The notes under the pieces: generated by a model
Seen by the model: only the letters and a program-made list of their open reading frames with translations
Told to the model about the DNA's origin: nothing
Database searches by the model: none
Source of the DNA: Escherichia phage A7_1
Direction: 5' to 3' (one strand)
Sequence record: OP795442
Length of the DNA stretch: 64,000 nt
Made by a program: the position numbers and the translations under genes
Shown: positions 7,574 through 55,778 of the stretch, one piece after another
Layout: every line of letters starts with the position of its first letter
Position numbering within the stretch: the first letter of the stretch is position 1

Positions 7574-7840
7574 TTATAACTTTTCTTTACCTAAAGTAAG
7601 ACTAATTTCGAAAGTTTTTGTTATAACTTTGTCGTCTTTGTCGAAGAAATCGAATTGGACATAACTCTCGGTCGAACTGACAACCAGACCTACAGAGACA
7701 GTCCCTTCTGGTACGAGAGCCTTATATTCTTCTTTTAGCACAACGTCGTAAAAATACAACGCTCCACAATAAACTTCATCCCAACCATCAAAAGATTCGA
7801 TGAAAGCTTTTTCAATACCAACTAAAGTATTTTCTGACAT
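7574..7840 (-). CDS. hypothetical protein
   Basis: Track ORF, 88 aa. Confidence 0.45.
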   Translation of the reverse strand: MSENTLVGIEKAFIESFDGWDEVYCGALYFYDVVLKEEYKALVPEGTVSVGLVVSSTESYVQFDFFDKDDKVITKTFEISLTLGKEKL

Positions 7841-45541: not shown

Positions 45542-45685
45542 ATGAAAACTTGTCAGTGTGGTAAAAAGTCTATTGCTGGTCTGCGTCGCGGTGTTGCTTT
45601 ATGCCAGTATCATTACAATAGTCAAGTATGGGGTAAAACGTGGGCTGACCAGGTTGAAGCAGCAAAGAAAGCAAAAAGTAATTGA
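45542..45685 (+). CDS. small Cys-rich protein (about 47 aa, not in track)
   Basis: MKTCQCGKKSIAGLRRGVALCQYHYNSQVW... behind AAGGA SD; the antisense track ORF 45570..45887 is rejected; approximate. Confidence 0.4.
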   Translation: MKTCQCGKKSIAGLRRGVALCQYHYNSQVWGKTWADQVEAAKKAKSN

Positions 45686-54048: not shown

Positions 54049-54101
54049 TTGACACGGATCGTCAATATGCTAATATTTATCACGTAGGGCGGCAACGCCC
54101 C
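54049..54101 (+). promoter_or_regulatory. promoter plus 5' GC hairpin cassette
   Basis: TTGACA-16-TAATAT then gggcg-gcaa-cgccc. Confidence 0.6.
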
Positions 54102-54597: not shown

Positions 54598-54629
54598 AAA
54601 AGGGCTTGACTTGTTCAGCCCTTTTTTGC
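54598..54629 (+). terminator. rho-independent terminator
   Basis: agggcttgacttgttcagccct then tttttt. Confidence 0.8.
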
Positions 54630-54767
54630 TATTCTTATCAAACGGGCGGCACCTGGGAACAGGGGGGAGGTAATCACTGGACGACTCCGCTATATAGTGA
54701 TAGTAAATAGCTATCAATAATCTCCAAAAATAAAATAAAACATATCGAATCTTTACAATTCTTTCTG

Positions 54768-54796
54768 TTGACACAACAACCGCATTACAGTATTAT
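54768..54796 (+). promoter_or_regulatory. sigma70-like promoter driving an ORF-less leader
   Basis: TTGACA-17-TATTAT; no plausible ORF for about 340 nt downstream. Confidence 0.55.
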
Positions 54797-54804
54797 TTAT
54801 CTCG

Positions 54805-55069
54805 TAGGGCAGCGAAGCAGTGATGTAAAGTAGTTACTCTATGATGTAAGTTCTGAGAAGTCGAATCCGATAAAGTATCAGAAAGTTTCTAAGTTTTCGA
54901 ATCGTCCAGATGAAAAAGGCTGGCAAGTGTTGAGAAAGGGCACGTTGAGTAAGTCCTGAACAGGGGCGCTCCTAGACACCTTCTACTGAGATTGCGATCG
55001 AAGTGTTAAACTGTGAGAAACGATAAAGAGTACCAGGAAAGAAAGAAGTAAAAGAAGTGAAAAAGATTG
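54805..55069 (+). ncRNA. candidate non-coding RNA or long untranslated leader
   Basis: Promoter-proximal stretch with no ORF longer than about 10 codons, then a second promoter; inferred from sequence only. Confidence 0.3.
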
Positions 55070-55099
55070 TTGACACGAAGGTAAGTTTTGTACTATTAT
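55070..55099 (+). promoter_or_regulatory. sigma70-like promoter
   Basis: TTGACA-18-TATTAT. Confidence 0.55.
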
Positions 55100-55143
55100 C
55101 TATCTTGTAGGGCAAACTTCAAAAACATTAAAAAGGGTACAAA

Positions 55144-55419
55144 ATGTTACAGCTTAACGCCAAATTAGACAAAGAAATCACTGAATTTTGGGATATGGTA
55201 GTAGCTACAGATGTTGACGGTGTAGCAAGTCCTTACCTCAACAACATCGAATACCACAATGTTGCTGCAATGAATGCAGAATACGCAGAAGAAGGCGGCG
55301 CGGATAAGTTTGCTAAAAGCAACGGTTTCACTGATGCTAACGACATGATGCAATCAGTATTGTGGCAAGCCCAGGAAGATTTTCAAGAAAAAACCCTTGA
55401 ATTCGCCAGACGTTCATAA
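55144..55419 (+). CDS. hypothetical acidic protein
   Basis: Track ORF, 91 aa. Confidence 0.5.
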   Translation: MLQLNAKLDKEITEFWDMVVATDVDGVASPYLNNIEYHNVAAMNAEYAEEGGADKFAKSNGFTDANDMMQSVLWQAQEDFQEKTLEFARRS

Positions 55420-55752: not shown

Positions 55753-55778
55753 CAGGGGTCATATGGCCCCTTTGTAAA
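55753..55778 (+). terminator. terminator-like hairpin
   Basis: aggggtcatatggcccct then ttgtaaat. Confidence 0.55.

Follow-up and report, generated by a model that had tools for sequence, protein, structure and literature searches.

RESULTS

The locus and its promoters

The genome of Escherichia phage A7_1 (OP795442), of which a stretch of 64,000 nucleotides (nt) was analyzed and is hereafter called the window, carries a promoter-driven segment at 54,768 to 55,143 that an earlier note, made from the letters alone, had proposed to encode a regulatory RNA or a structured leader. The segment lies within a run of small plus-strand early-type genes, each with its own promoter. Promoter P1 (54768-54796, plus strand; TTGACA-17-TATTAT) was found where the note had placed it and matches 11 of 12 consensus positions, with a predicted transcription start at about 54803-54804. 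The second promoter and the next gene announced there were likewise located, namely promoter P2 (55070-55099, plus strand; TTGACA-18-TATTAT, 11 of 12 consensus positions, same promoter family) and a gene of 91 amino acids (aa; 55144-55419, plus strand). Between the two promoters, our comparative analysis revealed a conserved multi-helix RNA of about 220 nt (54804-55021) in two parts, a 5' module and a junction domain. The reading as a regulatory RNA or structured leader gains support from this plus-strand structure, which begins at the predicted transcription start and displays covariation, and we consider it very probable that a genuine structured RNA family is located here at the 5' end of early transcripts.

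A two-part structured RNA

The 5' module (54801-54894, plus strand) comprises the hairpins H1 and H2 connected by the linker GAUGUAAG. With covariance model R1 it scored 96.4 bits, as the single copy matched in the window, and promoter P1 ends 5 nt upstream of it. H1 (54806-54840, plus strand), as paired by RNAalifold, contains the lower stems AGGG/CUCU and AGC/GUU, an internal loop of GAA opposite AAAGUA, and the apical hairpin GCA-GUGA-UGU. H2 (54851-54883, plus strand), which is also present in single-sequence minimum free energy (MFE) folds, combines the lower stem UUCUGA/UCAGAA and the same internal loop with the upper stem GUCG/CGAU and the loop AAUC. Both hairpins follow one design, in which a lower stem opens into a 5'-GAA, a short apical hairpin, and a 3'-(A)AAGUA before closing again. 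We read these internal loops as being of the loop-E or sarcin-ricin type, whose bulged-G consensus we take to be AGUA/GAA: the invariant 5'-GAA-3' stands opposite 5'-(A)AAGUA-3' with the correct strand polarity in both hairpins, whereas the extra one or two A residues are non-canonical and the likeness is confined to the level of sequence.

Covariance analysis with related phages, which the earlier note had recommended, yielded compensatory changes in the 5' module and in helices P1, P4, P0, and P3 of the junction domain. Both sides had changed in 14 of the 19 pairs of the 5' module in a 13-sequence alignment that was fitted to the R1 model and consequently favors the structure; an unfitted MAFFT/RNAalifold alignment agreed, with changes in 13 of 19 pairs. 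The proportion of paired cells in the module was 90.9%, compared with 68% after shuffling (none of 500 shuffles reached the observed value) and 23-39% with slid partners. Both-side changes affected six of seven pairs in the H1 lower stem, while four of five pairs covaried in the H2 lower stem (95% paired) and all four in the H2 upper stem (100% paired). When the sequences of Vequintavirinae and Seuratvirus were folded together by RNAalifold, 47 pairs resulted, 14 of them with compensatory double changes. Era103, which had been left out when R1 was built, scored 83 bits with this model and contributed new compensatory pairs. About 25 G·U cells occur among the pairs of the module and would turn into A·C mismatches if read on the opposite strand, indicating that the structure belongs to the plus-strand RNA.

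The junction domain (54885-55021) consists of a closing helix, P0, around helices P1 and P2, a 30-nt insertion termed P3, and P4. Two forms were distinguished: type A, as in the window, and type B, a diverged copy of the window core that occurs in the RNAs of Autographiviridae. Type A equals the type B domain with an insertion of exactly 30 nt, P3, in the P2 loop. In MFE folds, the 5' strand of P0 (GUUUCU-A-AGUUU; 54885-54896, plus strand) pairs with AAACU-GUG-AGAAAC (55008-55021, plus strand), which forms the 3' edge of the conserved RNA. The duplex was weak in the window lineage (z-score -1.3) and strong, with z-scores of -3.5 to -3.9 and compensatory changes, in Seuratvirus; P0 has only 4 base pairs (bp) in Rtp, and three of five pairs covary within type A. 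The junction strand UCGAAUCGU (54897-54905, plus strand) is invariant in the alignments and has the counterpart GGACUCCG in type B. Helix P1, CCAG-AUGAAAAAGG-CUGG (54906-54923, plus strand), was 100% paired in 11 sequences, with covariation in two of its four pairs (CG to UA, AU to GC). The candidate helix P2 (54932-54984, plus strand), in which GAG-A-AAGG (54932-54939) faces CCUUCU (54979-54984), encloses P3; it is pairable in all 11 sequences yet invariant. A local hairpin, GUGUU/GCAC, would compete with P2 and is equally invariant; type B RNAs, in which the P2 strands close a simple loop of 8-9 nt, favor P2.

P3 (54944-54973, plus strand) pairs through GAGU/GCUC, an AA bulge, and a 5-bp stem capped by the pentaloop GAACA; in each of the eight type A sequences tested, its excision removed exactly 30 nt. 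Its inner stem covaries (GC to CG, CG to UA), and its loop reads GAANA in all type A lineages, with a variable fourth base. P4 (ACU-GA-GAU-UGCG-AUC-GA-AGU; 54985-55004, plus strand), read directly from the sequence, showed covariation in four of four pairs within the family and 91% of its cells paired. The order in type B is P0 (AGUGUA/UACACU), P1 (CUAG-RUGAAANAGR-CUAG), UUGAGNAAGGG, the 8-9-nt loop, CCUUCU, and a P4 of 4-5 bp; in the window, P0, the P1 loop RUGAAANAGR, the P2 strands UUGAGNAAGGG...CCUUCU, and P4 all fall within 54885-55021. Without P3, 89.5% of the cells in the junction domain of 11 sequences were paired, in comparison with 76.8% after shuffling and 26-60% with slid partners. 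More than 50 invariant unpaired nucleotides are contained in this 130-nt domain. A pseudoknot between the L1 loop and CCUUCU was rejected, as a G to U change in the loop is uncompensated. Overall, the compensatory changes support H1, H2, P0, P1, P3, and P4 as predicted helices.

Conservation and distribution among phages

Escherichia phage A5-4, which measures about 145 kilobases (kb) and is unclassified within Vequintavirinae, shares 99% identity with the window. Alignment of the window with A5-4, A73, LTH01, and UPEC06 revealed five substitutions across approximately 54803-55022, together with a rewritten promoter P1 spacer between retained -35 and -10 hexamers and several indels in 55023-55060. 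Conservation starts at the predicted +1 and ends at the P0 3' strand (about 55022). Unannotated intergenic DNA of unrelated siphoviruses matches an 88-nt core (54897-54984) at 85-92% identity; these phages are Rtp and ZL19 (Rtpvirus), PH1062 and BUCT-XGG-1 (Nouzillyvirus), and SA80RD, SLUR75, and WildeMaa (Seuratvirus), and with Seuratvirus the homology extends nearly without gaps over 233 nt (70% identity), beginning at the -35 hexamer and reaching the core's end. BLAST searches with the 5' module alone reached further lineages, in which it lies downstream of promoters and always in unannotated DNA: Moazamivirus (7-11, SE131, pSal-SNUABM-01), Kuravirus-like phages (Bas89, FS2B, MN03, XT phages, SU7), Vibrio Autographiviridae (VP93 group), Erwinia phages (Era103 and relatives), and Klebsiella-type Autographiviridae (KL01, RCIP0053, Kp_Z1, Roth32, Reminis, MR4). 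Homologues are carried by about nine phage lineages in all, and the 5' hairpin pair is the most widely shared part of the RNA.

The genes 3' of the RNA are unrelated between lineages, and the 91-aa gene of the window is not homologous to those found elsewhere in this position. Within lineages, the downstream proteins are 42-48% identical, compared with about 95% for the RNA core. This suggests that the RNA serves the transcription unit in general rather than any particular gene, and a gene-specific leader or riboswitch was rejected on the ground that the downstream genes are unrelated. Across the carrier phages, no shared small or partner protein was found, only HNH endonucleases. These homing-endonuclease genes, 41-51% identical, are located at about 34985 (plus strand) in the window and correspond to rtp20 and rtp40 of Rtp, SA80RD_78, and bas23_0081 of WildeMaa; they encode the sole proteins common to the three type A lineages and lie about 1 kb downstream of the RNA in Seuratvirus. 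In SE131 and pSal-SNUABM-01 (Moazamivirus), more than 1 kb without an annotated gene follows the 5' module (positions 76-2139 of the SE131 record), and the records of pSal-SNUABM-01 and 7-11 end inside or just after the module, which splits the element across the record ends.

Two copies of the phage's own early promoter flank the RNA both in the window, at 54768 and 55070, and in Rtp, where they read AATAGCACTTTTTG[CT]TAAA... and lie at positions 59-80 and 299-320 of the retrieved stretch. This arrangement suggests insertion or shuffling by recombination between the promoter copies. Near the other early end of Rtp, the stretch 1444-2524 contains a polynucleotide kinase and a homologue of the Stp-like PrrC activator, indicating that the early regions of this phage are rich in functions related to host defense.

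Coding potential

The earlier description of the stretch as free of open reading frames (ORFs) longer than about 10 codons holds insofar as nothing substantial lies on the plus strand of 54797-55143, where the sole ATG ORF has 7 codons (MKKAGKC) and lacks a Shine-Dalgarno sequence; it falls short in that ORFs with alternative starts reach 10-21 codons. The recurring motif claimed there did not survive as written, as the 9-mer AGTCGAATC is present once (54859-54867); what repeats is the 7-mer TCGAATC, at 54745, 54861, and 54897, and this string is not enriched across the window, where 11 copies compare with 8.7 expected. The region is also overlapped by ORFs of 30-47 aa on the minus strand. The longest (54972-55115), which shares sequence with promoter P2 and with the 3' portion of the RNA, is annotated as the hypothetical protein A54_101 in A5-4, with similar calls in UPEC06. 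It is broken by indels in A73 and LTH01 and is probably a spurious gene call.

Placement in early transcripts

In every lineage, a sigma70-like promoter with 7-11 of 12 consensus matches (mostly 8-11) ends 2-20 nt (mostly 4-16) before the module, and genes in the same direction follow downstream of the RNA. No terminator-like site was detected on the plus strand of 54800-55143 or 3' of the RNA in the homologues from the approximately nine lineages, which argues that the early transcript retains the RNA as its leader. Upstream, a hairpin AAGGGCU...AGCCCUU followed by a U-run (54600-54628, plus strand), read from the sequence and conserved in RudolfGeigy, a phage of the rV5 type, has the appearance of an intrinsic terminator closing the preceding gene pair, and the RNA element would accordingly open a new transcription unit. 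The C content of the leader is 14-16%, compared with 21% for the window, suggesting that it is a poor Rho substrate.

An exact boxA, GCUCUUUAACAA, lies about 12 nt 3' of the type B domain in the Klebsiella-type Autographiviridae KL01, Reminis, and RCIP0053, and the same boxA is located in the early leader of T7 at 813-824; Era103 and VP93 carry versions with one or two mismatches. The apex of P3 in the window, GUCCU-GAACA-GGGGC, resembles boxB in shape, since a 5-bp stem under a GAANA pentaloop is, as we take it, the form of lambda boxB. In SU7, the early region contains annotated terminators followed by genes without their own promoter. An exact boxA, GCTCTTTAACAA, was also seen in this phage (record of about 73.7 kb; 7700-7711 on the minus strand of the retrieved piece), in a 1.3-kb early-region stretch without an annotated gene downstream of an annotated terminator. 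BoxA is known to nucleate Nus-factor antitermination complexes (PMC3177189, PMC7665894). The early sigma70 promoters of phage 7-11 have been validated at 5 min, and the authors of that work concluded that an undefined antitermination strategy must exist (PMC8948821). Phage 7-11 carries the 5' module beside its early region.

Neighboring features of the window

Six plus-strand promoters of the window, at 45682, 52079, 54049, 54768, 55070, and 56326, fit the pattern TTGACA-N16-18-TANNNT-N7-GTAGGGC, with none expected from 100 shuffles; the GTAGGGC element would provide these promoters with a common conserved initial transcribed sequence. At the 54049 promoter, the GTAGGGC leader runs on into a GGGCG-GCAA-CGCCC hairpin (54083-54100). 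The non-coding block at 54600-54680 contains the terminator-like hairpin overlapped by a promoter-like TTGACT-18-TATTCT with TG, together with AAACGGGCGGCACCTGGGAACAGGGGGGAGGTAATCAC. It is about 90% identical to RudolfGeigy, where the flanks do not align and the block is annotated as a 30-aa coding sequence, although the two phages do not have the same reading frames here; the block may represent another small RNA or a cassette border. Between the conserved RNA and promoter P2 lies a variable purine-rich spacer with indels (55022-55069, plus strand), outside the conserved RNA, which shows weak low-complexity similarity to Rtp and may act as the A-rich upstream DNA of P2.

Comparison with known RNAs and genomes

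Rfam 15 returned no match in the whole window at gathering thresholds and chance-level matches alone in 54700-55200 at E values up to 10 (best 20.9 bits, against a gathering score of 101), and searches of six homologous loci at permissive thresholds returned nothing relevant. ARAGORN identified no tRNA or tmRNA gene in the window, and the TCGAATC strings lack flanking T-arm complementarity. Resemblances noted by eye to 5S rRNA, 4.5S RNA, the tRNA T-loop, CsrA GGA motifs, Hfq ARN repeats, and the hairpin ribozyme were dismissed as matches of short strings, unaccompanied by the helices or the conservation that would be required. Neither the core nor the 5' module matched any of 5,426 Escherichia coli genomes by BLAST, and host origin or mimicry was rejected on this basis. 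A scan for the core recovered Rtp itself alone from the viral contig collection and nothing from bacterial genome contigs; five metagenome matches were dismissed as chance because their flanks were unrelated. The 5' motif recovered phage 7-11 alone from the viral contig collection and 13 bacterial matches, where about 17 were expected by chance. When eight of these bacterial matches were scored with R1, seven matched the 19-mer itself and nothing further, and the eighth, a full-length match of 26 bits (E = 0.004), was judged to be inflated by the 19-mer pattern and unconvincing. In the literature searched, no phage RNA of this kind has been described.

DISCUSSION

The reading that we favor, plausible though short of probable, is that the RNA works in cis, as a leader, to alter elongation or termination of host transcription. 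Host sigma70 RNA polymerase would start at promoter P1 (about 54803), and the first 220 nt or so of the transcript (to 55021) would fold into two 5'-terminal hairpins followed by the helix-closed junction domain. Acting in cis and co-transcriptionally, the RNA would affect the host elongation complex or the access of Rho, presumably through contact with RNA polymerase or Nus factors, in the manner of processive antitermination or anti-pausing leaders such as HK022 put, lambda nut, and the rrn boxA leader. The early gene cassettes, punctuated by terminators, would in this way be read through by polymerases that had started at P1. An effect of this kind is favored by the invariable position at the 5' start of the operon combined with the constant absence of a terminator, by the indifference of the RNA to the genes that follow, and by the low C content of the leader. 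It is further favored because boxA adjoins the RNA in one subgroup and the P3 apex is boxB-shaped, because an independent study concluded that 7-11, a carrier of the 5' module, must use an antitermination strategy that it left undefined (PMC8948821), and because the early genes of SU7 sit behind annotated terminators without promoters of their own.

Several observations weigh against this interpretation. In the window, and likewise in Rtp, a promoter intervenes between the RNA and the first gene, making that gene of the window independent of the leader. The sole terminator-like site downstream in the window (about 55754-55775) is weak, and no boxA, whether GCUCUUUAACAA or the lambda form CGCUCUUA, was found within two mismatches in the 54.7-55.2 kb region. 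There is no likeness to put in sequence or structure, judged from putL and from the failure of R1 to find anything at HK022 put. The folding energy is no better than that of shuffled sequences (z +1.2 to -0.55), and since these thermodynamic z-scores are not significant, the structural case rests on covariation. Furthermore, the cassette is accessory and occupies a hypervariable slot. RudolfGeigy, a close relative of the rV5 type without the cassette, has a single promoter and no RNA; in 12469II (Veterinaerplatzvirus), the Rtp promoter stands directly before the rtp74 homologue, again with no RNA; and KurtStettler (Seuratvirus) carries a 94-aa gene in the slot that holds the RNA in WildeMaa, a swap that looks like that of an accessory gene rather than a regulatory necessity. 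Such whole-block differences among relatives point to a mobile promoter-plus-RNA cassette in a hypervariable early slot.

These patterns lend themselves to a rather unlikely but serious alternative, a trans-acting immediate-early noncoding RNA that binds or sequesters a host macromolecule in an accessory host-takeover or anti-defense function. Its target could be a defense protein, a ribonuclease, an RNA chaperone, or a ribosomal factor, captured by the whole RNA or by a junction domain processed at P0, a helix of 14-19 bp that might serve as a processing stem. The sporadic, cassette-like distribution would reflect horizontal transfer between unrelated phages with common hosts; the RNA has its own promoter, is inserted relative to the rV5-type and Veterinaerplatzvirus relatives, and sits behind an early promoter in a hypervariable slot that holds a small protein gene in a relative. 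Moreover, long invariant unpaired segments between variable stems are what would be expected of a surface binding a conserved host partner. However, no terminator or other evident 3'-end formation was seen in any of the approximately nine lineages, and the RNA always occurs at the 5' start of an operon, never stand-alone or convergent. In addition, no complementarity to or mimicry of E. coli sequence was detected, and a co-occurring partner protein is missing from the carrier genomes, which have HNH endonucleases alone in common.

It is improbable that the RNA is simply a 5'-terminal stabilizer or processing platform that counters decay by RNase E and RppH, like the ompA 5' untranslated region or the T4 gene 32 hairpin, and whose hairpins may also direct RNase processing. 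The start of the module about 4-16 nt from the -10 element in all lineages, the wide sharing of the two 5' hairpins, and the co-transcription of the RNA with whatever genes follow are all compatible with such a role. Nevertheless, simple protection leaves unexplained the invariant GAA/AAAGUA internal loops and the linker as well as the 130-nt junction domain with its more than 50 invariant unpaired nucleotides, and the other five family promoters of the window have just the short GTAGGGC leader.

Catalysis or ligand binding, either as a self-cleaving ribozyme trimming the leader or as an aptamer (a riboswitch or small-molecule sponge), has a still smaller chance of being correct. A compact, helix-closed multi-way junction with conserved nucleotides in junctions and loops and variable stems would suit it, and the intergenic regions of phages are a frequent source of new ribozyme classes. 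Against it, no Rfam ribozyme or riboswitch model matched even at E = 10, and the hairpin-ribozyme-like strings (GAGAAGUC..., GAGAAA..CACGUUG) lack the required helices. An expression platform, such as a terminator or a helix sequestering the Shine-Dalgarno sequence, is also absent; what stands between the domain and the ribosome-binding site is a promoter in two lineages (the window and Rtp) and an unpaired spacer of 45-55 nt in Seuratvirus.

A DNA-level element, be it a replication origin, a primer transcript, a protein-binding array, or a recombination cassette border, is very unlikely: the intergenic or divergent-promoter location in siphoviruses and the flanking promoter repeats, which could mediate shuffling, would fit it, but covariation keeps G·U pairs on one strand only, conservation is bounded by the predicted +1 and the P0 3' strand, and a replication origin in particular was rejected because the GC skew has no inflection at 54.8 kb and switches at about 32 kb. 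Finally, a hidden small protein gene, whether the 7-codon ATG ORF or a minus-strand ORF of 30-47 aa, can hardly be entertained: minus-strand ORFs exist and are annotated in two database records, but A73 and LTH01 have no annotation here, a 1-nt core indel in SLUR75 and WildeMaa and multiple indels at 55023-55060 among close relatives disrupt the frames, the substitutions are paired compensatory changes without codon periodicity, and the micro-ORF has no Shine-Dalgarno sequence.

The favored reading, a cis-acting leader, invites comparison with HK022 putL and putR, which are likewise non-coding and promoter-proximal, stand at the head of early phage operons that host RNA polymerase transcribes, consist of two adjacent stem-loops that need no coding capacity, and occur in some members of a phage group only (PMC9378689). 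The window RNA also begins with two stem-loops, at +5 to +80. Its helices, loops, and length of about 220 nt nonetheless differ from those of put, which measures about 70 nt and has a triplex in stem I, in place of which the new RNA shows GAA/AAAGUA loops and a junction domain. The carriers of the new RNA are virulent and not lambdoid. Put itself suppresses pausing and termination without the aid of a protein, acting through the zinc-binding domain of the beta' subunit of RNA polymerase. Homology with put was rejected, as the putL sequence has no similarity to the window RNA and the best R1 match in HK022 (E = 2.2) falls at an unrelated site. The lambda nut sites and the boxA-boxB-boxC signals of rrn and T7 have their parallels in the exact boxA GCUCUUUAACAA about 12 nt past the type B domain and in the P3 apex, which has the 5-bp stem and GAANA pentaloop that we take to be those of lambda boxB, a likeness of shape only. 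They differ in that the window-type RNA has no boxA, no N-like protein was identified, and the structured part of the new RNA greatly exceeds boxB in size and is positioned upstream of boxA; the 5' module is absent from T7 itself.

PeSL-type promoter/stem-loop cassettes shuffle early genes in T4-type phages. The RNA resembles such cassettes in standing between a terminator-promoter unit and the next promoter of the same family and in being present or absent as a block; its cargo, however, is a non-coding RNA instead of an ORF, and recombination at the promoter copies is our conjecture. DicF, IsrK, ToxI, GOLLD, ROOL, and HEARO are also non-coding, phage-borne, and structured, whereas the new RNA has no Rfam 15 match, terminator, tandem repeats, or associated protein gene. 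The window RNA is a member of a widespread modular RNA family, described in no library or paper searched and unrelated to put and nut in sequence and architecture; it may work like put or nut despite this unrelatedness. Two bolder proposals, which jointly we regard as possible but doubtful, can be formulated. The RNA could be a second class that reprograms host RNA polymerase, structurally unrelated to put, acting alone or with boxA and Nus factors, widespread at the 5' end of early transcripts in virulent Enterobacteria and Vibrio phages, and mobile between phage families as a promoter-plus-RNA cassette. Equally, it could be an immediate-early RNA decoy that uses its loop-E-type hairpins and invariant junction to trap a host protein of defense or of RNA metabolism.

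The means by which virulent phages that depend on host polymerase secure fast, uninterrupted early transcription have been worked out chiefly in lambda and HK022. The RNA described here, about 220 nt long, has a defined secondary structure and clear boundaries as well as compensatory variants from nature; together with natural comparisons of presence and absence, such as WildeMaa with KurtStettler and Rtp with 12469II, it renders the question directly testable. Rfam lacks the RNA family that the finding contributes. The finding also indicates that the hypervariable early regions mined for anti-defense proteins can hold non-coding cargo, which gene callers overlook or mis-annotate as small ORFs.

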